64,000 nucleotides of DNA from a virus, in IMG/VR virus record IMGVR_UViG_3300045988_180880, positions 319,950 to 383,949 of that record; one strand, written 5' to 3'. The notes beneath the pieces are model-generated. The model was not told the origin of the DNA. It saw nothing but the letters and a program-made list of their open reading frames with translations, and did not search any database. Positions within the stretch are counted from its first letter, which is position 1, and each line of letters begins with the position of its first letter. Both the position numbers and the translations under genes were made by a program. This document shows positions 7,171-21,667 of the stretch, one piece after another.

Positions 7171-8013
7171 ATGAAACTTAGAGCAAAAGATACTGAAAGT
7201 TTTATTCAAAAAAGTAAAGATAAATATGGTGAAGATGCTTTAGATTATTCTGAAGTAAACTATATTGATAAATTAACTCCTGTAAAACTAATATGTAAGA
7301 AATGTGGGAATATATTTTATCAATCACCAGCAGAACATTTAAGAGATAGAAAGAAAATATCTTGTCCTAAATGTGCAGTAATAGATTCCAGAGAAAGAAG
7401 GTCTATTAAACAGAAAGAAGTTTGGTTAAGGAAATGTAAAGATAAGTTTGGAGATAAATTTGATTACTCTAAAGTTAATTACATAAATAATAAATTAGAT
7501 GTATGGATTTATTGTAATAGTTGTAAAAAATGGTTTAAACAATCTCCACATCATCATATTAGAAATATTCATGGATGTCCTTTCTGTGCAATGAAAGAGA
7601 AATCTGGATATGAATTTATGGTTGAGAGTTATCTTGAATATTTAGTAAAAAATGATAAAACGTTATCATATAATTCAGAATACAGTATTTTAAATAGGAT
7701 AGCGGGAAGGAATTCTAACAAAATAATGATAGATTTTAAATTAAATATAAATAACTTAGAATATTGGATAGAAGTTAATGGTCAGCAACATTACAAATTT
7801 ATAAATTTCTTTCATAAAACAAAAGAAGATTTCCAAAAACAATTAAAAAGGGATGAAAATGTTAGAGAATACTGTAAAGAAAATAATATAATTCTCATAG
7901 AAATTCCATATACTTACAATACATATGAGAAAATATCTGAAGTTCTAAGAAGAATTTTAATTGGTGGTGAATCTCCAAATATAATAGTTCAGCCAAAAAT
8001 AATACAACCATAA
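7171..8013 (+). CDS. free-standing homing-endonuclease-like protein (two Zn-finger repeats + Vsr/DUF559-like PD-(D/E)XK C-terminal domain)
   Basis: Two tandem repeats of the pattern KYG(E/D)..DYS.VNY...V.I.C..C...F.QSP..H.....CP.C. The C-terminus IDFKLN..LEYWIEVNGQQHY...RDENVREYC..NNIILIEIPY matches the DF...IE.dG..H..Rd pattern of Vsr-like endonucleases. The listed ORF starts at TTG 7087; I prefer ATG 7171 (MKLRAKD...). Confidence 0.65.
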   Translation: MKLRAKDTESFIQKSKDKYGEDALDYSEVNYIDKLTPVKLICKKCGNIFYQSPAEHLRDRKKISCPKCAVIDSRERRSIKQKEVWLRKCKDKFGDKFDYSKVNYINNKLDVWIYCNSCKKWFKQSPHHHIRNIHGCPFCAMKEKSGYEFMVESYLEYLVKNDKTLSYNSEYSILNRIAGRNSNKIMIDFKLNINNLEYWIEVNGQQHYKFINFFHKTKEDFQKQLKRDENVREYCKENNIILIEIPYTYNTYEKISEVLRRILIGGESPNIIVQPKIIQP

Positions 8014-8069
8014 ACAATAAAGGAGAGTAACTTTGATCGGTTACTTTTCTACTAAAACAATTATTTATT
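8014..8069 (+). promoter_or_regulatory. conserved 5' block with hairpin (copy 1 of 2)
   Basis: acaataaaggagagtaactttgatcggttacttttctactaaaacaatta... is nearly identical to 9527-9578. Hairpin gagtaac/gttactt (8025-8031/8040-8046). The block directly precedes the ATG of a paralogous gene in both copies. Confidence 0.6.
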
Positions 8070-8585
8070 ATGAACCTACTAGATATATTACTCCCACTCC
8101 CTAGACGAAGAAGAGAAAAGGAAGAATTGAAAAAACTAGAGCCAGAAATAAAAAATCTTGAAGAAAAACTTGGATTAATTGGAAGAACTGGAACAGAAGT
8201 TTATTATGATCCACTCTATGAACGAAATAGAGGAAGAAAATATGATCTTAAAGGCCGAAAGGAATACCTAGAAGACCTCAGAAAACGATTAAACAATGGG
8301 TATAAGAGTTCGAATGTAATACGAGCTAGTGGATATTTTAGTCCAGGTAATTCTAATGAAAAAGATACTTTTAACCCAATCATAAAAGAATTACCTAAAC
8401 CAAGTAAGGTAGTGTATGTAGTATTAATAAGAAAAACTATTGATATCCCAAAAACGATAAAAATAGAGAACAGTACTGAATATAAAATAAAAAGTACAAA
8501 CTCTGAATGTGATAATATAGAGGATTACTATATTATAAAAGAATTGGATGAAAACGCTAAAAAATTTATTAAATCTCTAATATGA
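8070..8585 (+). CDS. hypothetical protein (MxLLxILLP family)
   Basis: 171-aa ORF. The N-terminus MNLLDILLP...EEKLGL...YYDPLYERN is paralogous to the 9579 ORF. ATGA overlap with the next gene suggests translational coupling. Confidence 0.7.
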   Translation: MNLLDILLPLPRRRREKEELKKLEPEIKNLEEKLGLIGRTGTEVYYDPLYERNRGRKYDLKGRKEYLEDLRKRLNNGYKSSNVIRASGYFSPGNSNEKDTFNPIIKELPKPSKVVYVVLIRKTIDIPKTIKIENSTEYKIKSTNSECDNIEDYYIIKELDENAKKFIKSLI

Positions 8586-9505
8586 TCATATTAAGAAAAT
8601 ACCCAGAGGAACAGAAAGAATTTAGTATACTTTCAGAAATATCTCAATTGGGTTTAAGGAAAGGAACGAAAAATTATATCAGGAAACAAAAAAGAGATGT
8701 GGTGAACAAATTAATTCAAAATAAACGAGATTTTCTTGCAAAAACGAAGAAGACAGAAAGAAAATTGACTAATCTTCGAAAAGAAACAAAAGAGAATGAA
8801 TTAATAGCCAATAATCTGAAAAAAGAAGCTAATAGAGTAAACACTGATATAATACCCGATAATAAATTTTCTAAACTAGTACATCAGCCTAAAGGAGATA
8901 AATCCTATATTCTCGATAAAGAAAAGAGAAATCTACTTAAGCAAATGTCTAATGATAAAAATTTGGATAAAGCTAGTAGAGAGTTAGCCAGATCAAGTTC
9001 GGCCAAAGATGCAATTATAAATCTTAACTCTGATGCAATAGGAAAAGACACCCCGTTTGTTGCCCATGAACTAGGTCATGTTAAAAATAGTAAAAAATCT
9101 ATTAATTCTGCAATTCAAAAACTAGCTGATAAATCTAATAATAGTAAAGGAATATTAGCTGATATTGGGAAAAGAACTATTGGAATTCAAGAAGAAAATA
9201 ATGCCTGGAAAAATGGAATAAAGGATTTAAAAAAGGCTGGTGCAACGAAAGAAGAGATTAAACATGCCAAAAGTCTAGAAAATGCTGCAGTAGATACATA
9301 TAGAAAAGGAAATAGTTTAAGAAATAACTTAAATGAAAAGCTATTAAATAAATTACATCCAAAAGAAATAGATAACTATAAAGTATTTCCTGGATCTCAT
9401 AAAGAAGAAAAAGATTTAATGGAACTTTTTGGAGATAAAGGAAGAACTGAAAGACAGAAATATAATTTAAGAAGAAAAATAATAAATAAAAGGAAATCTA
9501 AATAA
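8582..9505 (+). CDS. leader-family protein with HExxH metallopeptidase-like motif
   Basis: N-terminus MIILRKYPEEQKEFS. HELGH at 9065-9079, followed by EENNAWKNGIKDLKKAGATKEE. This block is shared with the 10430, 14828 and 20729 products. Confidence 0.75.
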   Translation: MIILRKYPEEQKEFSILSEISQLGLRKGTKNYIRKQKRDVVNKLIQNKRDFLAKTKKTERKLTNLRKETKENELIANNLKKEANRVNTDIIPDNKFSKLVHQPKGDKSYILDKEKRNLLKQMSNDKNLDKASRELARSSSAKDAIINLNSDAIGKDTPFVAHELGHVKNSKKSINSAIQKLADKSNNSKGILADIGKRTIGIQEENNAWKNGIKDLKKAGATKEEIKHAKSLENAAVDTYRKGNSLRNNLNEKLLNKLHPKEIDNYKVFPGSHKEEKDLMELFGDKGRTERQKYNLRRKIINKRKSK

Positions 9506-9526
9506 TTATATACTATTATAAAAAAA

Positions 9527-9578
9527 ACAATAAAGAAGAGTAACTTTGATCGGTTACTCTTCTACTAAAACAATTACT
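9527..9578 (+). promoter_or_regulatory. conserved 5' block with hairpin (copy 2 of 2)
   Basis: acaataaagaagagtaactttgatcggttactcttctactaaaacaattact. Perfect hairpin agagtaac/gttactct. Confidence 0.6.
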
Positions 9579-9752
9579 ATGAGCCTACTAAATATATTAC
9601 TTCCTAGACAAAGGATGATAAATCAAGAAATAAAAAGTCTTGAAGAAAAACTTGGATTAACCGAAAGAGATACAAAAACTCTTTTCTATGATCCACATTA
9701 TATTAGAAATAAATCATTTCAAACAAGAAAAGATTATCTAAACTATAACTAG
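9579..9752 (+). CDS. hypothetical protein, short paralog of the 8070 gene
   Basis: ATG 9579 (MSLLNILLPRQRMINQEIKSLEEKLGL..FYDPHYIRN), 57 aa. The listed ORF 9546 begins at a TTG inside the upstream hairpin, which I rejected. Confidence 0.55.
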   Translation: MSLLNILLPRQRMINQEIKSLEEKLGLTERDTKTLFYDPHYIRNKSFQTRKDYLNYN

Positions 9753-9815
9753 AAAAAAATGATAGGGCGCTAAAATGCTTCTCTAAAAGTAAGAAAAAAC
9801 ATTAGAAGGATAAAA

Positions 9816-9844
9816 AAGAAGATCAACTTTTCGTCAATCTTCTT
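9816..9844. terminator. hairpin terminator between convergent genes
   Basis: aagaagat/atcttctt stem. The U-run is good on the minus strand (after gene 9853..10122) and weaker on the plus strand. Confidence 0.55.
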
Positions 9845-9852
9845 TGTAGGGA

Positions 9853-10122
9853 CTATTTAAGTGATTCTTTATATTCTTTTATCTCTTTACCACATTGATA
9901 GATCAATTCAGAAATACCTTCTGCACTTTCTAATGTATCTGTATTATCTAATACATTAGATACAACTTTACACCAATGTCTATCTTTTTCAGAAAGAGAA
10001 TCTGGATTTTTCTTATATTTATACATCATTTCTGCACCTAAATTATACCCTGCACCTTTTACCAATTTAAAAGCTGCTATAATTGATATAGTAGCTAATC
10101 CAATTTTTAATAATGTTTTCAT
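9853..10122 (-). CDS. small membrane protein, hypothetical
   Basis: 89 aa with an N-terminal hydrophobic helix (LLKIGLATISIIAAFKLV). Promoter-like motif ~24 nt upstream and a terminator downstream. Confidence 0.7.
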   Translation of the reverse strand: MKTLLKIGLATISIIAAFKLVKGAGYNLGAEMMYKYKKNPDSLSEKDRHWCKVVSNVLDNTDTLESAEGISELIYQCGKEIKEYKESLK

Positions 10123-10145
10123 ATCTTTTATATATTTTATTTATT

Positions 10146-10162
10146 ACATATATAAGGCTTTT
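10146..10162 (-). promoter_or_regulatory. promoter-like motif (AAAGCCTTATATATGT family)
   Basis: Plus strand reads acatatataaggctttt, which is aaaagccttatatatgt on the gene strand. It lies ~24 nt upstream of ATG 10122. Confidence 0.6.
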
Positions 10163-10184
10163 ACTCCTTCCAAAAATTAATATC

Positions 10185-10214
10185 GGGGGGGGGTAAAAGT
10201 ATAAACAATTCCTC
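10185..10214 (+). promoter_or_regulatory. G9-tract element upstream of a leader-family gene (divergent copy)
   Basis: gggggggggtaaaagtataaacaattcctc, with the G9 run at 10185-10193. It ends ~18 nt before ATG 10232. Confidence 0.5.
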
Positions 10215-10231
10215 TTCGATACAAATATTAA

Positions 10232-10408
10232 ATGATTATAAAACGTAAACTATTTTCTAAAGATTCAAAAGTTCTCGTCCCTTATTTTGAACCTGGCATT
10301 ACTGAAACTGGTAGACGATACGTAACACTAATCACTAACGATGGAAGAAAGAAGCGGCAATATATAGATCCGTATAGAAAGAGAACTAAAAAAGAATTAG
10401 AAAACTAA
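10232..10408 (+). CDS. leader-family small protein (58 aa)
   Basis: The ORF lies between the listed ORFs 9853..10122 and 10563..11228 and is absent from the track. MIIKRKLFSKDSKVLVPYFEPGITETGRRYVTLITNDGRKKRQYIDPYRKRTKKELEN. Confidence 0.6.
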   Translation: MIIKRKLFSKDSKVLVPYFEPGITETGRRYVTLITNDGRKKRQYIDPYRKRTKKELEN

Positions 10409-10429
10409 CTTAACTTATTAATTAAAATT

Positions 10430-11228
10430 ATGATAATCAAAAGAAAACTGTTTAGTAAAAAAAGAGGAGAATAAAAACTTCAATGACACTAGTTCAAAAG
10501 CAAAAGGAACTGCTTTATATCTTGGAGGTGCGGTAGCGGGTCAAGGTATCGCTGCACCTATAATGATGAAACATATGCAAGACGAACCCTCAGAAGAATC
10601 TGCAAAAATAGCTGAAAAACTAAAAAGATTAGCTTCTAGACGAGGACATAAAGTAGATAATATTACATATACTGGAATGGGACCTGCATATCAAAATAAT
10701 AAAATTTATACAAGTGGAACAAAAGCAGCTGATGTTCTTTCACATGAAATGGGACATGCTCACTATGATAAAAGAAAAGTAAAATCAGTAAGTGATGCTA
10801 TTGGTAAAGTTGCTCATAAAGCTTATCTAAAAACTGGTGGAATGTTGAATCATACAGTTCTAGCTCCTACAGCAGGAATAATAGCAGGTGTTAGATCAGG
10901 TAAAAAAGCAGCAGAAAAAGAAGCAGCCGGAGAAAAAGAATCAAAACTCTCCAGACATAGTGGATGGGCATCTGGTTTAGCTGTTCAATCTCCAGGGCTA
11001 GTATCAGAGGCTATGGCAAGTAAACATGGTCTAGATTTAATGAAAAAAGCTGGTGCCTCTAAGAAATTAATGAAAGCTAGTCGAAAAAACCTAGGTGTAG
11101 CTTTAGGAACTTATGCTGGAGTTGCTGTAACTAATGCAGGAATGTCAGAATTAGCTAGAGGAATTGCATATAGAAAGAAAAAGAAAAAATTAGAGAAGGA
11201 AAAAGATAAAAAGAAAGATGATAAATAA
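10430..11228 (+). CDS. leader-family HExxH protein, reading frame interrupted at an A7 run
   Basis: ATG 10430 gives MIIKRKLFSKKRGE, with a stop at 10472-10474. The +1 frame is open from 10455 through the listed ORF 10563..11228 (..KKEENKNFNDTSSKAKGTALYLGGAVAGQGIAAPIMMKHMQ...). HEMGH at 10743-10757. Removing one A from the run at 10457-10463 restores a family-typical protein. Confidence 0.55.
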
Positions 11229-11242
11229 CTAATATCATCTTT
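11214..11242. terminator. bidirectional hairpin terminator
   Basis: aaagatgat/atcatcttt 9-bp stem, with an A-run upstream and a T-run downstream. Sits between convergent genes and overlaps the stop of 10563..11228. Confidence 0.55.
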
Positions 11243-11256
11243 CTTATAAATCGTAA

Positions 11257-11331
11257 CTAAAATATCTTTCCAAAATGACGAAAGTATTTAAAAAAGTTAC
11301 GATAACCAATAAATAATCCTAATCCTTTCAT
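11257..11331 (-). CDS. possible 24-aa peptide (MKGLGLFIGYRNFFKYFRHFGKIF)
   Basis: First ATG 21 nt downstream of promoter-like motif 11353-11370, the same spacing as at bona fide genes. No other support. Confidence 0.3.
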   Translation of the reverse strand: MKGLGLFIGYRNFFKYFRHFGKIF

Positions 11332-11352
11332 AATCTTATATATTTTATATAT

Positions 11353-11370
11353 CACATATATAAGGCTTTT
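11353..11370 (-). promoter_or_regulatory. promoter-like motif
   Basis: Plus strand reads cacatatataaggctttt. Confidence 0.5.
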
Positions 11371-11395
11371 AAGGAATATAGAGTGTAAAACTATA

Positions 11396-11460
11396 AATCC
11401 TGGGAAAGTTTGGGATATAACTGCCCAGGAACTAATTAAATAAAAATAAAGAGCTATATG
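11396..11460 (+). repeat. ~60-nt CCTGGG-hairpin element, copy 1
   Basis: aatcctgggaaagtttgggatataactgcccaggaactaattaaataaaaataaagagctatATG is near-identical to 20672-20731. Here only a 14-codon ORF follows (MIFQKKYKNLERNI). Confidence 0.8.
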
Positions 11461-11606
11461 ATATTCCAAAAGAAGTACAAAAATCTGGAAAGAAACATTT
11501 AAGTAATGCATTTAGAATCCATGAAATTAATGAAGTTAAGAAAATAATCTCAGATAATACTAATAGACTTCTTGGAAAAATAGAAATAAATAAAGAGATT
11601 TGGAAA

Positions 11607-11897
11607 CTAATCCAAATCTCTAATCTCAATAGCATAATAACCTTCAGGAATATTCCATACCCCTGGATCTAATGCATTTGTGGGTATTTCTGTATTTTCA
11701 TTGATAGGATACAAGTCTACTCTTTTATGATCAAGCCAATCTGAACAAGGAGTTTTTGATGTATTATGATAATCCTTTAAAAAGATTAATTCATTTCTTT
11801 TTACTCTCATACTTTTATTAGATTTATTAAGATTTTCTACTATTTTTTCAAATCTTAGCATAGGATTTTCTATAGAGCTAATATCTTTATCATCCAT
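11607..11897 (-). CDS. hypothetical protein
   Basis: Listed ORF 11607..11975 trimmed to the first ATG after the upstream gene (MDDKDISS...). The C-terminus LYPINENTEIPTNALDPGVWNIPEGYYAIE is paralogous to the 11911 product. Confidence 0.65.
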   Translation of the reverse strand: MDDKDISSIENPMLRFEKIVENLNKSNKSMRVKRNELIFLKDYHNTSKTPCSDWLDHKRVDLYPINENTEIPTNALDPGVWNIPEGYYAIEIRDLD

Positions 11898-11910
11898 AAT
11901 TTTATAATAT

Positions 11911-12114
11911 TTAAATGTTAATTTCAATAGTGTAGTAACCTTCTGGAATATTCCATATCTCAGAAGATAATGCATTTTTAGGTACTTCTGTATTTTCGTT
12001 AATAGGATATAACATTACTATTTTATAATTACATTCTAAATGAGATCTTATTATATCTTTCTCTTCATCAGTAAGTTTTTTCTCAATTACCGCTTCTTTG
12101 ACTATTCTTTTCAT
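11911..12114 (-). CDS. hypothetical protein, paralog of the 11607 gene
   Basis: 67 aa, with the promoter-like motif upstream. C-terminus LYPINENTEVPKNALSSEIWNIPEGYYTIE. Confidence 0.65.
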   Translation of the reverse strand: MKRIVKEAVIEKKLTDEEKDIIRSHLECNYKIVMLYPINENTEVPKNALSSEIWNIPEGYYTIEINI

Positions 12115-12140
12115 AATTCTACGTATTTAAAATTTATATT

Positions 12141-12157
12141 ACATATACGAGGCTTTC
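12141..12157 (-). promoter_or_regulatory. promoter-like motif (variant)
   Basis: Plus strand reads acatatacgaggctttc, ~27 nt upstream of ATG 12114. Confidence 0.5.
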
Positions 12158-12647
12158 AAATTGATAAAAAGGAGGTTTTATATAGGTTTGTCCCTTATTT
12201 ATGAGGACAAAGGAGTTTCCCTTATCCTACACCTCTAACCGCTACCGCTAGAGGTGTCTTAGAAAAGAAACATTGAATAAGATATATAGGAAATTTTAAT
12301 ATAATATCATTTTAATTAAGTTGACACCCCTTTGGCCTCTGGGGGCCAGGGGTGGTGTTTCTAGATTAAAAGCTCATAGAAATCCTAAACATAAATATTC
12401 CATGTCTCCGACATAATCTTATGTTCTTTATCTATATGAGCAAGTGTCGCAAATTCTTTAGATAATATCTTTTATAGTGGAGAGTCAAAAATAATAAATT
12501 AAATCGACAAAATGCGTATAATATCCTTTCAATCCCTTATGATTGAAAAGGGAATCCTCCTATGTCTTCAATTTAAAGAGACATAGAAATTCTTTTAACT
12601 GGATTCTCTATTAGATTATAATAAATTTAATAAAAAATTATACGTAT
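12158..12647 (+). promoter_or_regulatory. long structured ORF-poor leader upstream of the helicase-like gene
   Basis: ~490 nt with no listed ORF. Blocks cttatttatgaggacaaagga (12194-12214) and tgaataagatatatag (12274-12289) are shared with the inverted paralog's leader. GC-rich hairpin at 12324-12358 has G-U pairs valid only on the + strand. Further hairpins: acacctcta/tagaggtgt, atgtc/gacat, ctatgtct/agacatag. Confidence 0.55.
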
Positions 12648-14720
12648 ATGTCAATACTAAAATTACCTAATATCGTAGTACCAAGAGGTATTAGATATAT
12701 TTCAGAAATGGATAGTTTATTTAGATTTTATAAACTACCTGTAAAGTGTATAATTAATAAGCAACTTCCTGGATGTGGTTTTACAGAATACTGTATTAAT
12801 GGACCAGAAAATGTTATTCTGTGTAGTCCTAGAAAAATGCTCTTAAAGAATAAGAAGGATCAACATGGTAGAGATGTTTATTTGGTTGTAAATGAACTTG
12901 AGAAGGAAATAGAGGTTGATAAAGATCTCTCCAAGATAGATAAAATTAGATCTCAAGTATTTATGGATACTCTTAAAGAAGTAGTTCATGGAAAGGATAC
13001 AGTTTATAATAAATTAATGAATGAAATTAAAGATTATCTAAATGAGAGGAAGTACTTAGGGGATAAGCCCGCTAAGATCTTAGTTACATATGATTCATAT
13101 AGAATAGTAAAAGATATTCTAAAAAGTCTTGGAATATTTCAGAGTTTCTATACAGTAATAGATGAATTTCAAACTATCCTACATGATTCTAAATTTAAAT
13201 CAGATACTGAATTAGAATTCTTAGATATTCTTAAGCAATCTCATAGTGCATTATTTGTATCAGCTACTCCTATGTTAGAGGAATATCTTAATATGTTAGA
13301 TGAGTTTGATGGTTTACCTTATATTAATATGGATTGGGGTAAGGAGGATTCAACACGAATTATTAAACCAAATCTTAAGGTTTTATCTATGAAATCTACT
13401 GGATCTAAAGCAGAAGAGATCATAAAAACATATAAAGAGGGTAACTTTGAAAAATTTATCAAAATGGTTAATGGATATCCTAGGGAAATAATATCAGATG
13501 AAGCAGTGCTTTATGTAAACAGTGTGAATCATATTATATCTATCATCAAGAAATGTGATTTACAACCTGAAGAAGTAAATATCCTCTGTTCTAATACTCC
13601 TGAGAATCTAAAAAGAATACAAAAGAAATTAGGAAAGAAGTTTGTAATAGGGGAAGTTCCATTGAAAGGAGTAAAATCTAAAATGTTTACATTTTGTACA
13701 AGAACGGTTTACCTAGGCGCGGATTTCTATAGTTTATGTGCTAGATCTTTTATCTTTAGTGATAGTAATATAGATAGTCTAGCCGTAGATATCTCAGAAG
13801 ACTTGCCTCAGATATTAGGACGTCAGAGATTGTTTGATAATCCTTGGAAAAATAATGCAATATTTTATTATAGACCTACATGTGACTATAGAAAGGTTAG
13901 TCAAGAGGAATTTGATAGAGAGATTGAGAGAAAGAAAAAAGCTACTAATGATTTACTACTGTCATATAGTTCAACTCCTGATGAGGCAAAATTAACGTTG
14001 GCTGAGAGATATCAAAAAATGGCAAAGTCATTTAATTATAAAGATGACTATGTAGCAGTAAATGAACACTCCAGGTCTACTCTAATTCCTGTTATTAATA
14101 ACCTAGTTCTGGTAAATGAAATTAGAGCCTTCAGGATACAACAATATGACTATAAGGATAGATTTACAGTATTTAGTTCAGTACATAATACACTAGATAC
14201 AAATGATCTAATAAATCGAGAGGTTTCTGAATTTTTAAGTATGTATCAAGAATTAAAAACATACTATGATAAAATAAAATTACTATGTGAATATAACTTA
14301 TCTGAGCAGGGGGTTAGAATAATATTAGATCAGTTAGGAGGAGATGAGATAGCATCTCACTATATAGCATTGGGTCCTGATAGATTAAGGAAACTTTATT
14401 ATAATAAAACTAACATTAAGAAGGAACTAGGTATAGTAACCTTCAGTAGGGAACTCTTAGTTAATACAGTTCTCTCCAAGTTTTCTATTGGAGATAGAAT
14501 AGGTCAAGCAAGGATAAAAGAAATTCTTAAAAGTCTATATAATTCTATTGGATATTCTGCTATTCCAAAGGCTACTGATTTGGAAGAATTCTTTAATATA
14601 AAAAGAGCAAAAGTTAGTGAAGTTCTTTTAGATGGTACAAAAAAAAGAATAGATGCATTAGAGATAATAGGAGTTAAGCCAGAGTATCAAGGAATATATA
14701 ATAACCTGAAAAAACAATAA
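12648..14720 (+). CDS. SF2 helicase-like protein with lysine-less P-loop and family-specific C-terminal module
   Basis: Motif I-like LPGCGFTE (12768-12788). Motif II DEFQ (13161-13172). Motif III SAT (13260-13268). Motif V-like TRTVYLGADF. Motif VI QILGRQR (13809-13829). The C-terminal ~290 aa is shared with 55852, 57282 and 58309. Confidence 0.75.
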   Translation: MSILKLPNIVVPRGIRYISEMDSLFRFYKLPVKCIINKQLPGCGFTEYCINGPENVILCSPRKMLLKNKKDQHGRDVYLVVNELEKEIEVDKDLSKIDKIRSQVFMDTLKEVVHGKDTVYNKLMNEIKDYLNERKYLGDKPAKILVTYDSYRIVKDILKSLGIFQSFYTVIDEFQTILHDSKFKSDTELEFLDILKQSHSALFVSATPMLEEYLNMLDEFDGLPYINMDWGKEDSTRIIKPNLKVLSMKSTGSKAEEIIKTYKEGNFEKFIKMVNGYPREIISDEAVLYVNSVNHIISIIKKCDLQPEEVNILCSNTPENLKRIQKKLGKKFVIGEVPLKGVKSKMFTFCTRTVYLGADFYSLCARSFIFSDSNIDSLAVDISEDLPQILGRQRLFDNPWKNNAIFYYRPTCDYRKVSQEEFDREIERKKKATNDLLLSYSSTPDEAKLTLAERYQKMAKSFNYKDDYVAVNEHSRSTLIPVINNLVLVNEIRAFRIQQYDYKDRFTVFSSVHNTLDTNDLINREVSEFLSMYQELKTYYDKIKLLCEYNLSEQGVRIILDQLGGDEIASHYIALGPDRLRKLYYNKTNIKKELGIVTFSRELLVNTVLSKFSIGDRIGQARIKEILKSLYNSIGYSAIPKATDLEEFFNIKRAKVSEVLLDGTKKRIDALEIIGVKPEYQGIYNNLKKQ

Positions 14721-14734
14721 AACAATATTTTATG

Positions 14735-14807
14735 AGGTAAGTGTTCGATCTTACCTGAGACATAATAATTCTCATTCGCCAGTAAAGGTGAGTGGGAATT
14801 TTATTTT
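14735..14807 (+). terminator. double-hairpin terminator
   Basis: First hairpin aggtaag/cttacct (14735-14756). Second is a 13-bp stem attctcattcgcc/ggtgagtgggaat (14768-14799) with three G-U pairs valid only on the + strand, followed by tttatttt. Confidence 0.65.
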
Positions 14808-14827
14808 GAATAAAATTAGTACAAGAT

Positions 14828-15697
14828 ATGATAATAAAACGTAAACTAATTTTTGATAGTCCTGAACAAAGAGAGTTTGGGATTCCTTGGAAAAAGTATG
14901 CGAAATATGGAATGAGGTCTGTTAAAGACCACGGGTTAAGAAAAGGAATAAGAAAACTTCGATTTAAGATTTCTGATGATATTGATAAATCAATTAAAGC
15001 AAATGAAAAGGCTCATAAGGCTCTTGATGAATATACTAATAATACTGAATTTCCCAAACGATCAGAAGTAATGGAAGCTTTAGGTCAAGAAGCAAAGAAA
15101 AGAGGAATAGTTGTAATAAAAGGTAAAAAAGAATATAAACAGATATTGAAAGGTGGAGAAAAAATAAAACGCTCTTCTTATGATAGAAGTGAACCTTGGG
15201 CAGTTCCTAAAGAATATATAAAAAAGAAAGATATAATTAAGTATACTAAATCTAATTTTCCAGAGGATAGAGAACTTGGAAAAGCATTATCTAAAGGAAA
15301 AGCTGTAATAAATCAAAAAGGAAGTCAGGCAGTACTTGCTCATGATATTGGACATATTATGAATCGAAGTAAGACAAAAACAGGGATTGTATCTAAAGTA
15401 AATGATGTAACAAAATCGATTTATCAAGATAGTAGAAATAAAAAGGGATTAGGAAATTATTTACTAACTTCTGCAACAGGAAAGATTTTATTAAAAGAAG
15501 AAAAGAATGCTACTAAAAATGCAATGAGTCTTTTAAAATCAGCTAATGCAACTCCAAATGAAATGATTGCAGCCAGAAAAGAATTAGGAGCAGATTTTGG
15601 AACATATATGCATGGTTATAAAGCAAGTAAGGGAAGAATATTAAAGGGAGTAGTAAAACCGAATAGAATAAAGAAGAAAAATAAAAAGAGACGTTAG
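14828..15697 (+). CDS. leader-family protein with degenerate HDxxH motif
   Basis: MIIKRKLIFDSPEQREFG... HDIGH at 15341-15355, followed by EEKNATKNAMSLLKSANATPNE, which aligns to the HExxH paralogs. TAG stop. Confidence 0.75.
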   Translation: MIIKRKLIFDSPEQREFGIPWKKYAKYGMRSVKDHGLRKGIRKLRFKISDDIDKSIKANEKAHKALDEYTNNTEFPKRSEVMEALGQEAKKRGIVVIKGKKEYKQILKGGEKIKRSSYDRSEPWAVPKEYIKKKDIIKYTKSNFPEDRELGKALSKGKAVINQKGSQAVLAHDIGHIMNRSKTKTGIVSKVNDVTKSIYQDSRNKKGLGNYLLTSATGKILLKEEKNATKNAMSLLKSANATPNEMIAARKELGADFGTYMHGYKASKGRILKGVVKPNRIKKKNKKRR

Positions 15698-16017
15698 GCC
15701 TCTTTTTCTTGAATTTTAGAAATTAAACTATTAATATATTTTTCAGCTAATTCTTTTGTCTTAAATTTATTATTGAAAGATCCAATAATATAATATTTCT
15801 CTGGATCTTCTAGATTTATATTATATAATAGTTTAAAAGTTTCTAAATCTTCTTTCTTAATATTTAATATTTTCATATCTTTAGGAACATCGTATTCTTC
15901 TTTAGATACTTGAATTAATGTAATAAACGAAATCCCTTGTTCAAAAACTTTAGCTGTAGTGAACATTTTAGATATCTGTTTATTAGGTTTTACAATTTTA
16001 ATAATATCTTTTTTCAT
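15694..16017 (-). CDS. hypothetical protein
   Basis: 107-aa ORF with the promoter-like motif ~20 nt upstream. Its 3' end overlaps the convergent gene by 4 nt. Confidence 0.7.
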   Translation of the reverse strand: MKKDIIKIVKPNKQISKMFTTAKVFEQGISFITLIQVSKEEYDVPKDMKILNIKKEDLETFKLLYNINLEDPEKYYIIGSFNNKFKTKELAEKYINSLISKIQEKEA

Positions 16018-16037
16018 ATTCTTATATATTTATCATT

Positions 16038-16054
16038 ACATATATAAGGCTTTT
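16038..16054 (-). promoter_or_regulatory. promoter-like motif
   Basis: Plus strand reads acatatataaggctttt. Confidence 0.6.
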
Positions 16055-16112
16055 AGTTTATTATATTCCGTTCTTTATTTATGATCGGAAAAGTAAAAAA
16101 TCATATTCTCTA

Positions 16113-16145
16113 AAGGGGGGGGGTATGAAGTTTAATATTCCCCTT
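16113..16145 (+). promoter_or_regulatory. G9-tract element upstream of a leader-family gene
   Basis: aagggggggggtatgaagtttaatattcccctt, with G9 at 16115-16123. The aagggg/cccctt arms can pair. Ends 18 nt before ATG 16164. Confidence 0.6.
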
Positions 16146-16163
16146 AAATAGTATATAAATAGT

Positions 16164-17108
16164 ATGATAATAAAAAGAAAATTATTCTCTAAGAAATTAA
16201 CAGCCGAAGAGAGAAAACAGAGAGCTGCAGATCAGATTGATAAAACTCGTAAAGGAGTATCTACTGCGCATGGAATTTTAGCTGGTGGTACTGTAGCTGG
16301 GGTAGGTCTTTTAGGTTCTGATATTGCCAGAAATGAAGCTATGTATAAAGTAACTAAACAAACTAATAAACATGTAGATAAAATTAGCGAAAATTATGGT
16401 AATAAACTAGATAAGATAAGAAATACTGGAGATAAAGTTCGAGAATTGGCTAAGAAGAGATTGAAGAAAACTGGAAATCCTATAAAAGATCTTGCTAATG
16501 AACTTGATATTGATAGAAAGGTTGATTATGTCGAAAATGTCTATAAAACAGGAGCTGGAGAAGAATATAATGCTAAAATCGAAACTCTTAAAAAAGCTTC
16601 TAATAGATTAAAGGATAGAATTTCAAAGAAAGCTTCAAAGAGAAATAAGAAGATCTTGGTAGGAGCAGCTTTATTAGGAACAGCGGCGGGATTAGCTTCA
16701 AACCATTCAATGAAGAAACGTGCAGAAAAACTTAGAGAGAATAAATTTTCTAAGGCTGATAATGATTTAGATGAAGAAACATATCTTGGGATGTCAGAAG
16801 AATTTGATGATTCTAAATTCTCTCGAAAGTCAGATAAATGGCTTAAAGAAAGAGCTAGATATAATGAAGGTTTGACTGATAGAGAGAAAAAGAATATAAA
16901 GAAGACTGCTGCTAAAGCGATGATAGGTTTAGGTGTGACAGGAGCTTCAATTGGATTAGCTAAGAAATTATCTTTAAAAAGAGGTTTAATAGGAGCTGGA
17001 ATCGGTGCTGCTACAGGTGCCGGAATTGCTGCAGCTGCACATCTTCATCATAAATCAGAAGCAAGAAAGGCTCGTAAAGAATTAGAGCGTAGAGAAAAAG
17101 AAGATTAA
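16164..17108 (+). CDS. leader-family protein with glycine-zipper-like hydrophobic segments
   Basis: MIIKRKLFSKKLTAEE... Four Gly/Ala-rich hydrophobic stretches (GILAGGTVAGVGLLG; LVGAALLGTAAGLA; MIGLGVTGASIGLA; LIGAGIGAATGAGIAAAA) are separated by Lys-rich helices. Confidence 0.75.
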   Translation: MIIKRKLFSKKLTAEERKQRAADQIDKTRKGVSTAHGILAGGTVAGVGLLGSDIARNEAMYKVTKQTNKHVDKISENYGNKLDKIRNTGDKVRELAKKRLKKTGNPIKDLANELDIDRKVDYVENVYKTGAGEEYNAKIETLKKASNRLKDRISKKASKRNKKILVGAALLGTAAGLASNHSMKKRAEKLRENKFSKADNDLDEETYLGMSEEFDDSKFSRKSDKWLKERARYNEGLTDREKKNIKKTAAKAMIGLGVTGASIGLAKKLSLKRGLIGAGIGAATGAGIAAAAHLHHKSEARKARKELERREKED

Positions 17109-17136
17109 TTAATAAAAAAATGAGAGTTTAACGATT

Positions 17137-17898
17137 ATGAATATTTTAACATCACAATTACCATCAGGAGGATATGGATATAAATTCCCAAGTGTTAAGG
17201 TTAGTCCTATGACATTCTTAGAGATAACGAGATATCTTGAGAATCTTCCTTCTGATGATCCACTAGAAAAATACTTATATGATATCAACTTACTTATCCA
17301 GGAAGATGAAACTATCCTAGATTGTTATTTAATGGATGTAGATTTCTTGATATTTTATAAAAAGCTTTGTACGGTTTCTGGAGAATTATCTTATGAAATT
17401 GAGGTAACATGTCCAGAATGTGGAAAGAAAATGAAAAAAACTATATCCTTCGAGAAAGATATACACTTTAAACAGATCGATCAAAAGATTATGAATGGTG
17501 CTTTTATTGAACTCGGTGGACATAGATACGAGACTATAGTTCCGACAGTTAGAGAATTTATGAAGGTTTTTCAAACTTACCTTAGATATCGAACTGTAAC
17601 TGATCTTAAGATGATTAAAACTATAGCACTGATTAAAGATTTTGATTATCAGGGAACACAGATTGAAAAAGATGTCCTTGGGGCTACTCACTCTGATGTT
17701 ACACTTCTCTTAGCTTTACGTGACTTATATTATGATCGTCTTGAGCCAGTTCAATTGTTTTGTTCAGAATGTAATAAAGGTAAAAAACCGAAGGAAAGGA
17801 GGAGTGTGGCAGTAAGTGTAGAATCTCTTACTGTCGACTTCTTTCGAGACATCTGTAACAATTCCCCAATTGATGGATCTAAAATTTTATTTAAATAA
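17137..17898 (+). CDS. hypothetical Zn-ribbon protein
   Basis: 253-aa ORF with CPECG...CSECN cysteine pairs. Confidence 0.7.
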   Translation: MNILTSQLPSGGYGYKFPSVKVSPMTFLEITRYLENLPSDDPLEKYLYDINLLIQEDETILDCYLMDVDFLIFYKKLCTVSGELSYEIEVTCPECGKKMKKTISFEKDIHFKQIDQKIMNGAFIELGGHRYETIVPTVREFMKVFQTYLRYRTVTDLKMIKTIALIKDFDYQGTQIEKDVLGATHSDVTLLLALRDLYYDRLEPVQLFCSECNKGKKPKERRSVAVSVESLTVDFFRDICNNSPIDGSKILFK

Positions 17899-18154
17899 AT
17901 TTCTTAAGGCAGATGGAATAGAGAATTATACATTGAGTTCTCTTAAAGCTCTTAGGGAATGTTATGAGAATTTTCTTGATACTACTGAAGGAACTGATCC
18001 AGACTTCCCATTACTTAATTTTGGTGGTAAGAAGGGACAGAGGCTTAAGGGTATATCAGCAGCACAGCGCCAAGCCTACTATGAATCTGAAGCTGAGAGA
18101 AAAGAAATGATGGGTGAGGGAGGAATAATAAATGTAAACATTTTAGACTTATGA
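17870..18154 (+). CDS. hypothetical protein
   Basis: 94-aa ORF overlapping the previous gene by 29 nt in the +1 frame. Its stop overlaps ATG 18151 (ATGA). Confidence 0.55.
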   Translation: MMDLKFYLNKFLKADGIENYTLSSLKALRECYENFLDTTEGTDPDFPLLNFGGKKGQRLKGISAAQRQAYYESEAERKEMMGEGGIINVNILDL

Positions 18155-18938
18155 TTATAAAACGTAAATTATTTAGTCAGAAAAAAAAGAATCTGATGAC
18201 AAACTTAAGAGGGCCGCATCAATAGCCGGAGGAGCGGTAGTTACTAAAGAAGGATTGAATATACTAGATAATGTACATCAATCTGGAGAAGTATCTGGTA
18301 GGGTTAGATTATATCATGGAACTACTAAGAAAAATAAGAAGAAAATACTAGAAGAAGGTTTGAAAGGTGAAAAAGCTCTTACTAGTGATGCTATTACTAA
18401 TTAAAGAATAGGTGATGTTGGTAAAAAGTTTGGGAAGAAGATAGTATATACTGGAAAAAAGAGAGCGCCAGCGATTGACATGATAGTATCTCACGCAATG
18501 AATGCTGAAACACCTTCTATGGTTAGGATGTCAATTCCCTACAAAGAGTATCAGAACATGAGGTCTAGGAGAGTATATGAGAATCCTGAATTTACTATCG
18601 CTCACAATGCAAAAACTAAAAAAGAGTTTGCTGAGGATATGAAGAATAATATATTTCATCCAATGACTAAGAGAGAAGCTAATAAATATTATGATAAGTT
18701 TTCTGGTGCTAAAGGAACTTCTGGAACAAGAATTTTTGAAGGTGATATTGAATCTAAATATATAAAAGGAGGAAAAGGTTATCAAAAAAATTCTATCAAA
18801 GAGGTTGGAAAATATATTAAAAAGAATCCTAAACGTTTTGCTAAGGGTCTTGGAAAAGCTTCTCTTGGTGCTGGATTAATTGCAGGAGGAGCGGCATTAG
18901 CTATCAAAGGTGGAAAAAAGAAAGATAATACTGAATAA
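18151..18938 (+). pseudogene. leader-family paralog of the 19019 gene, disrupted by a frame break at A8 and an in-frame TAA
   Basis: ATG 18151 gives MIIKRKLFSQKKKN.., with a stop at 18223-18225. The -1 frame from 18189 (ESDDKLKRAASIAGGAVV..RLYHGTTKKNKKKILEEGLKGEKAL..) runs into listed ORF 18480..18938, apart from one TAA at 18402-18404. It aligns with the 19019 product along its whole length. Rescue by recoding is also possible (see findings). Confidence 0.55.
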
Positions 18939-18975
18939 ATTAATCTATAATAAAAACTTCTATCTTCCTGTAAAC

Positions 18976-19005
18976 GGGGGGGGGTATGAAGTTTAATAAT
19001 TCCCC
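18976..19005 (+). promoter_or_regulatory. G9-tract element upstream of a leader-family gene
   Basis: gggggggggtatgaagtttaataattcccc, with G9 at 18976-18984. Ends 13 nt before ATG 19019. Confidence 0.6.
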
Positions 19006-19018
19006 TATATAATATTTT

Positions 19019-19948
19019 ATGATTATTAAGAGAAAATTATTTTCTAAAAAAGAAGATAATAAGAAATTAAAAGAAGGAGTAGGATTATCTTCTATTATAG
19101 GAGGTGGATATTTAATTTCTAAATCAAATAATAAAGGAGATTTAACAGGAAGGCATAAATTCTATCATTCAACTGAAAAGAAGAATGTTAAATCTATTTT
19201 AGAAAGTGGTCTTAAAGGTTCTAAAGCATTAGAGGATGGAAACTTTACAAATTCATTTCTTCATGGTGCCGGAAAAGATGATGGAAGGGAGTTAGTATAT
19301 TTAGCAAAAAATAAAAAATCAGCTAGGAATGTTTCGGATGCTAGGATTGAAGCTGGTAGAGGAAAATCAAAGACTCTAAAAGTAGAAATACCACATGAAG
19401 ACTATAAAAAAATGAAAATAGCTAATGGAAATCCAGAACTAGAAGGAGCCAAAACATATAAAGAATTTCTAAATAATAGAAGTTATAGAGAGGATAATAA
19501 ATATAATAGATCTCTTTGGAAAGATTTAGGAGGAGATAGGAATTCTAACACTAGAATGATTGAAGGAAATATAGATTCTAAACATATCGTTGGTGGGAAA
19601 GGATATAAAAAATTAAGTACTAAAGAGTTAAGAGGTTATATCAAGAAAAATCCCAAAAAATTTTTAAGAGGGGCTGGAAAATTATCTTTAGGTGTCTCCG
19701 GAGTTTATATAGGAGGAAAATTACTTCGGAATAATGCAGAAAATTCTAAATCTAACAGTATCGATAATTCAGAAAAAATTTTAGTAAGTGCTGGAGCAAT
19801 TGGATCTGGAATTAAAACTGCTAGGACTGAATTAAAGAAAGTTAAACAAAATGATGTTATTGGTAGATCTAAAATTGACCAATTTTCTTCTGGATCTTTC
19901 AGAAAAAAAGCAAAAATCGTAAAAGATCTTGTTAAAAAGAAGGAGTAA
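19019..19948 (+). CDS. leader-family protein, possible H-Y-E type ADP-ribosyltransferase-like domain
   Basis: MIIKRKLFSKKEDNKK.. The blocks FYHSTEKKNVKSILESGL, ELVYLAKN and MIEGNIDSKHIVGG are conserved in the 18151 paralog as LYHGT, IVYTGK and IFEGDIESKYIKGG. Confidence 0.7.
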   Translation: MIIKRKLFSKKEDNKKLKEGVGLSSIIGGGYLISKSNNKGDLTGRHKFYHSTEKKNVKSILESGLKGSKALEDGNFTNSFLHGAGKDDGRELVYLAKNKKSARNVSDARIEAGRGKSKTLKVEIPHEDYKKMKIANGNPELEGAKTYKEFLNNRSYREDNKYNRSLWKDLGGDRNSNTRMIEGNIDSKHIVGGKGYKKLSTKELRGYIKKNPKKFLRGAGKLSLGVSGVYIGGKLLRNNAENSKSNSIDNSEKILVSAGAIGSGIKTARTELKKVKQNDVIGRSKIDQFSSGSFRKKAKIVKDLVKKKE

Positions 19949-20160
19949 GTAACTTTGATGATATTTATAAGAGAGCGGGAGAAGCTGTAGAAAATGATAT
20001 TAATATTGAAAGAAAAGCACAAGAGAAAGGAATGAATATATTAAAAAAAGCAAAGAAATTAGGAAAACAGAAATCTATAGCAAAAGGAGCTTTAGTAACT
20101 TCTTCCTTATTAGGTGCTTATGCTGGATATAGAAAATATAGAAAAGATAGGGAGGAATAA
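19939..20160 (+). other. stop-free -1-frame ORF filling the gap after the 19019 gene
   Basis: The -1 frame is open from 19936 to TAA 20158-20160, with no ATG before 20032. It ends in a hydrophobic GALVTSSLLGAYAGY segment like other family C-termini. It is reachable by a -1 slip at T AAA AAG (19933-19939). Confidence 0.3.
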
Positions 20161-20162
20161 TT

Positions 20163-20645
20163 ATGAGAGTATTAAGACAAAAAGTATTTTCTTTACTAAC
20201 TGAACGAATTAGAGAAGAATACTTAATAAAACCTGGAGATTTCGATAAATTTCCAAAAATCGTTCAAAATTATTACTTACAGGGAATTAATAAGGATTTT
20301 TATGATTTAATTAATCTCCAAGGATGTCATGGATTTAATCCATTTCCAACTCCAATATTAGATAAAAAACCTAATAAAGATGGATATATTCCTTTATTTG
20401 CAGAAAATCAAGATTATGCTGACTTAGATAATCCTACAGTTTACTATAAAGATGGAGTATTATTCAAGAAGACTGGGATATTTTTCAAAAAGATAGTTCC
20501 TATGAGTGACTTGAAATTTAAGAGTTTTCTTCTCAATAGTATGATTAATGAAGATGATTTAGGTCAGGAGTGGAAACAACATCCTAATGGAAATAGGATA
20601 ATAGCTCTTGAAGAAAAGATGGAGAGGAAAATTAATAGATTATAG
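20163..20645 (+). CDS. hypothetical protein (N-terminus weakly leader-like: MRVLRQKVFS)
   Basis: 160-aa ORF with an SD-like gggagg 8 nt upstream. Confidence 0.7.
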   Translation: MRVLRQKVFSLLTERIREEYLIKPGDFDKFPKIVQNYYLQGINKDFYDLINLQGCHGFNPFPTPILDKKPNKDGYIPLFAENQDYADLDNPTVYYKDGVLFKKTGIFFKKIVPMSDLKFKSFLLNSMINEDDLGQEWKQHPNGNRIIALEEKMERKINRL

Positions 20646-20671
20646 AAAATTAATCCTCCTTAAAAACATAC

Positions 20672-20731
20672 AATCCTGGGAAAGTTTGGGATATAACTGC
20701 CCAGGAACTAAATTAAAAATAAAGAGCTATG
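20672..20731 (+). repeat. ~60-nt CCTGGG-hairpin element, copy 2
   Basis: aatcctgggaaagtttgggatataactgcccaggaactaaattaaaaataaagagctATG. Hairpin cctggg/cccagg. Leads into gene 20729. Confidence 0.8.
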
Positions 20732-21667
20732 ATTATACTATTGAAAAATAAATCATTAACAGGGAGAGAAAAATCTATAGTAGAACAGAAAGAATTTAGC
20801 TTGCCAAGTAGTATAATGAAATCTATAAGAAATTTTATTGCTCCTATTAATAAAAGAGATGGATCTAATAAAATAAAGAATCCATTAGTATTGTACGCTA
20901 GAGATCAGAAAGCTAGAAGAATTAGAGCAAATAGAAAACTAGGAATTGATTTAAAAACAAATGTTCCCAAGAATCCTAAGTTAAATCAGAGTCTAACAAA
21001 AGAGATAACAAAGGATGGAGAAAATTGGGTATTGGATAATAATGGCTGGTATAAATTTCAAAATAACGTTGCGAGAGAATCAGCTGCTCCAGTAAATAGA
21101 GTTACATTAGGGATAAATAATCTTAAATATACAAAAATTTCTCCAAAAGACTGTATAGATCTTTCAGAATCAAAAGCACTACTAGCTGCTAAAACAAAGA
21201 AAAATATAATAAACCTTGAAGGAAGTTTGTTAGATTCTACAACTCCTATGTCTCATGAATATGGACATATATTAAATTCTAAAAATCCAAGAACTAGAAA
21301 GGTAGGGATGAGAATTAGAAGATTACAGAATCAAGAAAACAAAACGACCTCTAATAGATTCTTTGGAAAAGCAAAATCTACATGGAATATTGCTAGATTA
21401 AATAACTCTATTGTTTCTGAAGAGAAGAATGCTTGGAAGAACGGAATAAATGCATTGAAAAGAAATGGTGCTACTTCAGAAGATCTAAAGTATACTAATA
21501 AATATAAAAATGCAGCTTTAGATACATATAAGAGTAGTAGAAATTTAAAAATTGTATCGAAAGTATATGACATGTTTAAATCAAAAAATTCGGTTAATCC
21601 AATAGAATCATTAATGAAAGATAGAAAATATAAATGGAATGCAGTAGATCTAGGGTCTAATTTGTAA
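20729..21667 (+). CDS. leader-family protein with HExxH metallopeptidase-like motif
   Basis: MIILLKNKSLTGREKSIVEQKEFS.. HEYGH at 21254-21268, followed by EEKNAWKNGINALKRNGATSED. Confidence 0.75.
   Translation: MIILLKNKSLTGREKSIVEQKEFSLPSSIMKSIRNFIAPINKRDGSNKIKNPLVLYARDQKARRIRANRKLGIDLKTNVPKNPKLNQSLTKEITKDGENWVLDNNGWYKFQNNVARESAAPVNRVTLGINNLKYTKISPKDCIDLSESKALLAAKTKKNIINLEGSLLDSTTPMSHEYGHILNSKNPRTRKVGMRIRRLQNQENKTTSNRFFGKAKSTWNIARLNNSIVSEEKNAWKNGINALKRNGATSEDLKYTNKYKNAALDTYKSSRNLKIVSKVYDMFKSKNSVNPIESLMKDRKYKWNAVDLGSNL

Follow-up and report, generated by a model that had tools for sequence, protein, structure and literature searches.

The 64,000-nucleotide (nt) window analysed here, positions 319,950 to 383,949 of the IMG/VR virus record IMGVR_UViG_3300045988_180880, contains a set of genes whose products begin with the same short leader peptide, typified by MIIKRKLFS. 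We found that this leader, or tag, is a peptide under selection and that it is carried by unrelated protein bodies across many genomes. By analogy with phage T4, we consider the chances about even that it acts as a capsid-targeting propeptide, like the T4 capsid-targeting sequence (CTS) but with a cleavage site that has an aromatic residue at P1. Capsid location, cleavage and injection go beyond a conserved peptide signal and are inferred.

Listing of open reading frames (ORFs) and six-frame regular-expression scans of the window identified seven strict M(I/L)IKRKL starts and three weaker versions (Table 1), in agreement with the ten leader-bearing ORFs named in a preliminary description of this DNA. 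A degenerate back-translation of MIIKRKLF(S) matched five times in the window, against 0.00 expected from 100 shuffles, and the leader methionine was the first methionine after a stop codon in all copies. With residues 1-25 removed, the bodies fell into six classes without detectable similarity: {A, C, D, I}, {F, G}, B, E, H and J. The preliminary description had called the set a paralogous family with otherwise diverse bodies; the diversity was borne out, while the term paralogous has to be given up for unrelated bodies that have a tag in common. The isoelectric point (pI) was about 10 in eight of the ten members.

Table 1. Positions of leader-bearing genes, upstream tracts and related features. 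Positions refer to the window unless a contig is named; an arrow marks a putative cleavage point; aa, amino acids.
Feature	Position	Strand	Length	Leader or remark
Member A (weaker leader)	8582..9505	+	307 aa	MIILRK; degenerate leader MIILRKYPE
Member B	start 10232; ORF 10232..10408	+	58 aa	MIIKRKLFSKD
Member C	start 10430; leader and body span 10430..11228	+		MIIKRKLFSKK
Leader-like remnant, probable further member	11458..11502	+	14-codon ORF	MIFQKKYKNLERNI, then stop
Member D	start 14828; 14828..15697	+	289 aa	MIIKRKLIF
Member E	start 16164; 16164..17108	+	314 aa	MIIKRKLFSKK
Member F	start 18151; 18151..18938	+		leader MIIKRKLFSQKKK
Member G	start 19019; 19019..19948	+	309 aa	MIIKRKLFSKK
Gly-zipper ORF	20032..20160	+	42 aa	detached C-terminus of G; fused to G in P0001
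Member H (weaker leader)	20163..20645	+	160 aa	MRVLRQKVFS; variant leader MRVLRQKVFSLL
Member I (weaker leader)	20729..21667	+	312 aa	MIILLK; N-terminus MIILLKNKSLTGREKSIV
Member J	start 55339; ORF 54683-55339	-	218 aa	N-terminus MLIKRKLIQKEF, then ↓AE
G9 tract, 5' arm of hairpin	10185..10193	+		38 nt upstream of B; G10 in L001; pairs with downstream pyrimidine run
G9 tract, G-run...TTCCCCT hairpin	16115..16123	+		40 nt upstream of E; G7-G9 in other assemblies
G9 tract, same hairpin element	18976..18984	+		34 nt upstream of G; G6, G8 or G9 in six assemblies
Three-gene group encoding 297-aa, 785-aa and 482-aa proteins	L061:53-946, 966-3323, 3406-4854			IMG/VR contig 3300035283_000015

The conserved object is the peptide and not an RNA element, as the preliminary description had concluded from synonymous codons. 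Mean pairwise identity among the seven strict copies was 90% for the peptide, 82% for the nucleotides and 64% at third codon positions. Codon choices switched between families and within them, with CGT or AGA for Arg, TCT or AGT for Ser, and CTA, CTG or TTA for Leu. The 30 nt 5' of the strict leaders were 34% identical in pairwise comparison.

The leader was also found on dozens of genes in related phage contigs of 135-430 kb, with the consensus M-I-I-[KL]-R-[KQ]-x-[FY]-[ST]. A degenerate-pattern scan of IMG/VR returned at least 55 loci, mostly on viral contigs of 230-378 kb, and among the matches listed, MIIKRKLF stood on at least 15 unrelated bodies in related contigs. Homologues of G with 24-41% body identity started with MIIKRKLFSK, MIIKRLKYFS, MIISRKLFSK, MIILRQGEYS or MIILRKLFSS, and nearly all of 78 homologues of the A/C/D/I family, on contigs of up to 430 kb, began with MII[LK]R. 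Among 72 distinct N-termini, I2 was present in 68, I3 in 69 and R5 in 71; position 6 was K or Q, and an aromatic residue followed by Ser or Thr occupied position 8 or 9. The leader (MII[KL]R..[FY]S) was kept while the bodies of the G and A/C/D/I homologues diverged to 25-40% identity. Arrays of 12-20 consecutive leader genes were present in the distant phages L062 (135 kb, 37% GC) and L063 (192 kb). Literature searches with the leader strings found no occurrence in the papers covered.

A second motif, (E)Q(K/R)EF(S/G/A), had been described as an addition to the leader in four members. Among window ORFs of at least 50 aa, E[EQ][KR]x[FY][SGA] occurred only within residues 10-25 of A (EQKEF↓S, aa 10-15), D (EQREF↓G, aa 13-18) and I (EQKEF↓S, aa 19-24), and J carries the equivalent IQKEFA. 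The carriers are exactly those members whose leader is without L-F-S. The leader end (R-K-L-F↓S) and Q-K-E-F↓S follow a common pattern, in which a basic residue, any residue and an aromatic residue precede a small one. Judged by this pattern, the motif is another copy of the leader-end site, [KR]-x-[FY]↓[SGA], so that the motif itself stands and its status as an independent tag does not.

The same site is reiterated in other proteins of related contigs. Member H has the leader subtype of a group of MYIRRKVFSLL proteins, whose first 55 aa contain three or four copies of the site. A 297-aa zinc-ribbon protein has two tandem copies of it at the N-terminus (MKVERRKLFSSSISPRRKLFSGG), and Ser follows 7 of the 16 Phe residues of this protein. 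A highly acidic protein of 785 aa contains about 17 copies: Ser follows 17 of its 34 Phe residues, against an expectation of 2.2 ± 1.4, and none of 2000 shuffles reached 17. This protein is built of repeats of ~110 aa rich in xRLFSE, TKFFSE and EEKEFS, and the three-gene group in which it lies (Table 1) is also present in L014, L020 and L022; across these contigs, L061 included, the acidic protein measures 785-802 aa.

The acidic protein is followed in gene order by a 482-aa protein, which showed at least 80% identity over more than 100 database clusters and is as well conserved in hundreds of metagenomes. FS dipeptides occur in it just twice, at aa 39/40 and 62/63, and both are invariant, which suggests the pattern expected of a propeptide. 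From gene order and conservation, we suspect that the acidic and 482-aa genes encode a scaffold and then the major capsid protein. Neither protein was recognised by Pfam, PHROGs or PDB searches, so their identity as scaffold and capsid protein is presumptive, and BLASTP of the 482-aa protein against a recognisable capsid protein gave no informative match. The enrichment of the site in acidic scaffold-like proteins suggests what would be expected of a head-maturation cleavage or docking site.

A more distant phage, L064 (41.5% GC), encodes a homologue of the predicted ADP-ribosyltransferase (ART) of member G and is without leaders. The ART gene lies three genes past the capsid gene, and a head-protease gene is present in the same module, an arrangement that counts in favour of capsid targeting. 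Adjoining the head protease is an acidic 596-aa protein (L064:2998-4788) with repeats of (R/D/F)LFEK, and the ART homologue begins with ...ALLFIKEAKL. These repeats and the ART start may be a lineage-specific counterpart of the pair formed by tag and scaffold motif.

If the leader is a capsid-targeting propeptide, MIIxR would dock the new protein onto the assembling prohead core or scaffold, and the head-maturation protease would remove the tag at the leader end, where a basic residue, any residue and an aromatic residue are followed by a small one (RKLF↓S). Members that have lost the leader site would use EQ(K/R)EF↓(S/G/A), 10-25 residues in, as a replacement, and the acidic scaffold-like proteins, in which the same site is scattered, would be cut into small pieces. 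The cargo would be a fast-turnover set of small, very basic proteins that are carried inside the particle and reach the host together with the DNA; among them would be an ART, M48-like zinc peptidases and Gly-zipper proteins, joined in relatives by a GNAT acetyltransferase.

The bodies of G and F have, according to structure prediction, an ART fold. The AlphaFold model of G contained a confident core at residues ~40-220 (predicted local distance difference test score, pLDDT, 70-95), and all of its top Foldseek matches in the PDB were ARTs, namely pertussis toxin S1, Tpt1/KptA, DarT and ParT (probability 0.99-1.0, E-value about 3e-3). The ART domain of G contains the motifs YHST, LVY and NPE. 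In the family alignment the first of these reads YH(S/G/V)T, with Y49 near-invariant and YYSV in one homologue, and NPE (N138-P139-E140) is invariant; these motifs hold the putative H-Y-E residues.

Members A, C, D and I, by their motifs and the model of A, are predicted to be M48-like HExxH zincins. H162, H166, E205 and A208 (A numbering) were invariant in 35 sequences, which gives the signature HExxH...ExxA. A (pI 10) has HELGH at aa 162-166 and E205xxA208, C has HEMGH and I has HEYGH. The HExxH bodies of the preliminary description are thus genuine for the zincin family, with the exception of D, which reads HDIGH; orthologues of D read HEIAH or HEIGH. In the model of A (pLDDT 77), three strands accompany an HExxH helix and a Glu helix. 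Foldseek with this model returned nothing in the PDB and weak matches in BFVD, including viral Peptidase M48 entries. Pfam M48 and Zn_peptidase_2 matches to zincin members fell below the cut-offs, and one zincin homologue carries PF04298.

Of all members, E is the best conserved in related contigs. Gly-zipper segments lie close to its two ends and also at the ends of C, F and G. The Gly-rich hydrophobic stretch that had been noted past the leader of several members was seen in these same four. B is small and basic, and its orthologues in related contigs measure 42-63 aa. The body of J is not basic and received no functional assignment by sequence. A GNAT acetyltransferase bears the leader in L062. 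Pfam and PHROGs searches on the ten members and about 50 neighbouring proteins gave almost nothing significant. The leader regions were disordered in the AlphaFold models (residues 1-36 of G and 1-25 of A, pLDDT <50), as would suit a propeptide. The ART fold, the zincins and the GNAT protein suggest that the tagged bodies are effectors, and together with the pI of about 10 they suggest a resemblance to known packaged or injected proteins.

In phage T4, a CTS is present on the internal proteins IPI-III and on Alt, an ADP-ribosyltransferase, and is removed by the prohead protease gp21. The leader resembles it as an N-terminal peptide of ~10 residues common to otherwise unrelated basic proteins, one cargo being an ART. 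The two have no sequence similarity, and dozens of tagged genes per genome here compare with four or five in T4. The T4 site is (L/I)-x-E, with Glu at P1, whereas here an aromatic residue is followed by a small one and a basic residue occupies P3. No (L/I)-x-E with a conserved Glu was found after the leader, where the conserved junction is [KR]-x-[FY]↓[STGA]. The preliminary description had likened the leader to the T4 signal and proposed a tag on a diversifying set of injected effectors; effector-like bodies and a diversifying, decaying gene set were recovered, and the T4-type cleavage motif was absent. T4 scaffold and core proteins carry many copies of their cleavage site (PMC5694885), and the acidic FS-rich proteins would be the counterpart of this multi-site scaffold.

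The phages phiKZ, 201phi2-1 and SPN3US are likewise jumbo phages with multi-site propeptides and with paralogous head proteins whose divergence has spared the N-terminus (PMC5694885). SPN3US gp53 and gp54, for example, have identical 15-residue N-termini, and the ejection protein gp47 has a hydrophobic segment directly past its propeptide (PMC5694885), a feature that we liken to the members described here. Their propeptides differ in being mostly longer than 100 residues and cut after (A/S/G)-x-E, and their shared N-terminus links paralogues rather than unrelated folds. No homology to phiKZ, 201phi2-1 or SPN3US phages was detected. Injected polyvalent proteins contain ART, zincin-like metallopeptidase and GNAT domains and have been proposed to be delivered with the DNA against host defences (PMC7824862, summarising Iyer et al. 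2017). The tagged set has the same repertoire; polyvalent proteins, however, are single giant multidomain proteins, whereas here separate small proteins each have their own copy of the tag. In encapsulin cargo-loading peptides and polymorphic-toxin trafficking leaders, a short terminal peptide sends interchangeable cargo to one shell or export route. These differ from the leader in sequence, in machinery and, for most encapsulins, in the terminus used, and serve as an analogy only.

Several observations weigh against a capsid-targeting propeptide. The array in the window adjoins tail and baseplate genes and not head genes, and two members, J and H, are not basic. The leader site differs from the sites with Glu at P1 that the T4, phiKZ and SPN3US proteases cut. 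Pfam, PHROGs and PDB searches of the window and the fetched loci, which cover part of the genome, recognised no maturation protease, portal or capsid protein; since none was recognised in this clade, the head context of the acidic proteins is itself something that we infer. Likewise, a jackhmmer search of all fetched ORFs that started from the head protease and the capsid protein of L064 gave no match, and PDB sequence and profile searches on candidate capsid, sheath and other structural proteins returned nothing. The most conserved part of the leader is MIIxR and not the F-S junction, which makes cleavage at F↓S a guess. The contigs used for motif statistics were chosen for carrying the leader, so the positional enrichment is biased. 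Homologues were absent from 50,697 GenBank phage records; queries of these records with the region (megablast) and with four proteins (tblastn) gave distant helicase matches only.

The position of the array raises another destination, in which the tag would direct proteins to the tail lumen or baseplate hub, or to a phage-built intracellular compartment or vesicle, rather than to the capsid interior. The array is interleaved with a baseplate-hub-like gene and ends before the tape-measure/lysozyme gene, a 137-aa member in related contigs lies two genes upstream of a 670-aa protein with a candidate sheath-like N-terminus, and several members have Gly-zipper hydrophobic segments. We nevertheless regard this destination as unlikely, as the genes of other members are grouped with those for the FS-rich acidic proteins and for the 482-aa protein with its high conservation, the reiterated sites in the acidic proteins fit scaffold degradation better, and a tail lumen is too small for dozens of cargo species. 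The leader end also recalls the processing signals of the Prp/L27 type, which would serve complex folding and assembly rather than cargo loading. In Staphylococcus phage 80alpha, the capsid and scaffold proteins have the N-terminal extension of ribosomal protein L27, which the host cysteine protease Prp cuts at F↓A, and the motif is present on non-homologous virion proteins in staphylococcal phages, including the phi13 major tail protein (PMC5744158). Both kinds of peptide are Phe-terminated (8-9 residues in the closest comparison, 8-14 overall) and continue with a small residue, Ser or Ala, often before KK, as in MIIKRKLF↓SKK and MLKLNLQFF↓ASKK (PMC5744158, PMC9405229); the number and nature of the substrates differ, and dozens of substrates per genome are unlike 80alpha. 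The consensus MLxx(D/N)LQ(F/L)F'A(S/H)KK does not fit the leader at P3-P5, where K-R-K replaces (D/N)-L-Q (PMC9405229), and no Prp-like (C108) ORF or catalytic motif was found with approximate queries in about 0.6 Mb of fetched DNA. In addition, Shine-Dalgarno-like motifs were present in 4 of 50 window genes, below the background of 10.6%, which argues against Firmicutes and Fusobacteria, the groups with long L27 and Prp (PMC9405229), and makes a Prp-bearing host unlikely. We consider a signal of this type very unlikely, and cleavage by host Prp was rejected on the motif mismatch and the Shine-Dalgarno-less genes.

We judged in the same way, as having a very small chance of being correct, a membrane-targeting or secretion role, in which the leader would be the charged N-region of a signal anchor for host-envelope proteins. 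In its favour are the basic N-terminus and, in C, E, F and G, a layout that resembles the positive-inside pattern, with one Gly-rich hydrophobic stretch 20-35 residues from the start, another near the C-terminus and then Lys-rich tails; neighbouring genes have Gly-zipper_YMGG matches. However, the leader is not followed by a hydrophobic h-region, copies of the same site stand inside highly acidic soluble proteins, and charge alone is insufficient to keep nine residues identical. Six members (A, B, D, H, I and J) are without a hydrophobic segment (maximum 19-residue Kyte-Doolittle value <1), which excludes a signal anchor as the general role, and the value stays below 1.6 in all ten. On these grounds a Sec or signal-anchor role was rejected. 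Even less probable, in our estimate, is that selection acts on the 5' end as an initiation enhancer or a regulatory nascent peptide, or that the leader is a functionless relic of cassette duplication. The extremely A/U-rich leader codons in a Shine-Dalgarno-less phage, the conserved poly-G hairpin upstream of several members and the 64 nt that E and G share at 77% identity across the start all favour such a role. It is opposed by third positions far less conserved than the peptide, by Arg and Ser codon families that no single synonymous step interconverts, and by upstream regions that are unrelated in most members. Furthermore, the motif is also an internal repeat, highly expressed structural genes are without the tag, Rfam gave no match, and the tag persists as bodies diverge to 25% identity.

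The tagged gene set is both diversifying and decaying, with frameshifts, nonsense polymorphisms and internal deletions among the tagged genes of the window and related assemblies. Members C and F, which had been listed as intact, are both broken by poly-A frameshifts directly past the leader. The leader ORF of C has 14 codons, and the HExxH body is in the +1 frame past an A7 tract (10457-10463). C is intact in assemblies L001 and L013, which have A6 and encode 263 aa. A search of public assemblies did not recover the frameshifted product of the window, and the A7 tract may therefore reflect either a rare variant or a mistake in assembly. Programmed frameshifting was rejected for C as well as for F.

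The leader ORF of F has 24 codons, and the body is in the -1 frame past an A8 tract (18181-18188). The context, CAG AAA AAA AAG, contains the dnaX-type slippery heptamer A_AAA_AAG in the zero frame, but no stimulatory structure was found 3' of the A8 tract (fold z-score 0.44) and the body is otherwise broken; a programmed -1 frameshift was rejected for these reasons. An in-frame TAA at 18402-18404 is CAA in 3 of 6 assemblies, and there is a second A7/A8 polymorphism near the 3' end, so that the body is disrupted in most assemblies. The A8 tract was invariant in six independent Illumina-based assemblies that differ elsewhere, and on this basis we rejected stop-codon recoding or sequencing error as the origin of the break. 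The orthologues P0004 and P0005 are in frame. On sequence grounds, F is probably a decaying pseudogene and not a recoded gene. Among the other members, G is cut short by a 1-nt indel at an A5 run (19934-19938) relative to the 379-aa homologue P0001, and its detached C-terminus persists as a separate ORF (Table 1). D is split in L004, and several related contigs have an internally deleted 67-aa form of E.

Many tagged genes are preceded, at a distance of 32-51 nt, by a poly-G element made up of G6-G10, about 15 nt and then a CCCC(T) run able to pair with the G-run. For the hairpin at 10185, the fold z-score was -3.65. The element is also found in L001-L006, L008, L025, L055 and L062, and the length of the G-run differs among assemblies with identical aligned flanks. 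Such tracts are striking in a genome of 30% GC. The hairpin could be a phase-variable regulatory element; an Rfam search of the region gave no match. We further considered whether the tag, the hypervariable poly-G hairpins and the post-tag poly-A tracts (at the S-K-K codons) together form a contingency system that switches the loaded effectors stochastically, served by aromatic-P1 machinery unlike any characterised prohead protease. This we think quite unlikely. If true, the injected set would differ between particles of one lineage, which would amount to bet-hedging against the variety of host defences.

Three other upstream elements were observed in and around the array. A 60-nt direct repeat at 11387-11446 and 20663-20722 (87% identity) contains the inverted repeat CCTGGG...CCCAGG, and its copies precede member I and the remnant at 11458. 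A 36-nt element, AAAGCCTTATATATGTAAT on the coding strand, lies at 10128-10163, 11336-11371, 12123-12158, 16020-16055 and 22072-22107, and similar sequence is present upstream of 47576(+), 52038(+), 53982(-) and 62113(-). It precedes small genes, mostly on the strand opposite to the tagged genes, and probably serves as a phage promoter of another temporal class. A 52-nt element at 8012-8063 and 9525-9576 (96% identical, with the inverted repeat GAGTAAC...GTTACTC) stands upstream of a pair of paralogues, 8070-8585 (MNLLDILLP...) and 9579-9752 (MSLLNILLP...), and each copy lies just upstream of a tagged gene.

The window is part of a gut jumbo phage of ~289 kb known from metagenomes only. A G protein identical to that of the window was found on 15 public contigs, the longest of which is a 289,368-bp ENA metagenome contig. 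The window has about 30% GC and no tRNA genes, and megablast of it against the 50,697 phage records gave no match. The tagged array lies on the late-gene strand among tail and baseplate genes and ends just before a tape-measure-like protein with a lysozyme domain (22974-26498), with tail-fibre-like genes downstream. The baseplate-hub-like gene that is interleaved with the array (17137-17898) has a weak match to PF12322. The regions 5' of gene starts are A-rich, and this, together with the scarcity of Shine-Dalgarno-like motifs, suggests that the host initiates translation without Shine-Dalgarno sites. We presume that a member of the Bacteroidota is the most likely host. A scan of GTDB genomes with member E found no relative and thus gave no clue to the host.

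Other genes in the window were recorded alongside the array. Two T5orf172/MUG113 (GIY-YIG-related) genes at 55852-57279 and 57282-58304 (-) lie adjacent to each other just upstream of J and may be homing-endonuclease-like insertions. Inside the array, on the opposite strand, are tandem overlapping paralogues (11607-11975 and 11911-12114, -) that share YPINENTE(I/V)P(T/K)NAL...WNIPEGYY. A 690-aa DEAD-like helicase-related protein is encoded at 12648-14720 of the window and at L063:4987-7119 (-), in or adjoining the arrays of two distant clades. Its only GenBank relatives, at 23-31% identity, are in ~90-kb Acinetobacter, Psychrobacter and Edwardsiella phages and human faecal contigs.

The clade to which this phage belongs is without a cultured member, and almost none of its genes match a known family. 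If the leader is a capsid-targeting propeptide, it would allow the probable packaged and injected proteins of a jumbo-phage clade widespread in human and animal guts to be listed from sequence, and the CTS principle would extend to an unrelated lineage with another cleavage chemistry and dozens of cargo genes per genome. The tagged proteins, with their predicted ART, zinc peptidases, acetyltransferase and pore-like Gly-zipper proteins, are candidate effectors of anti-defence or host takeover. The tag might also load foreign proteins into particles, as the T4 CTS does.

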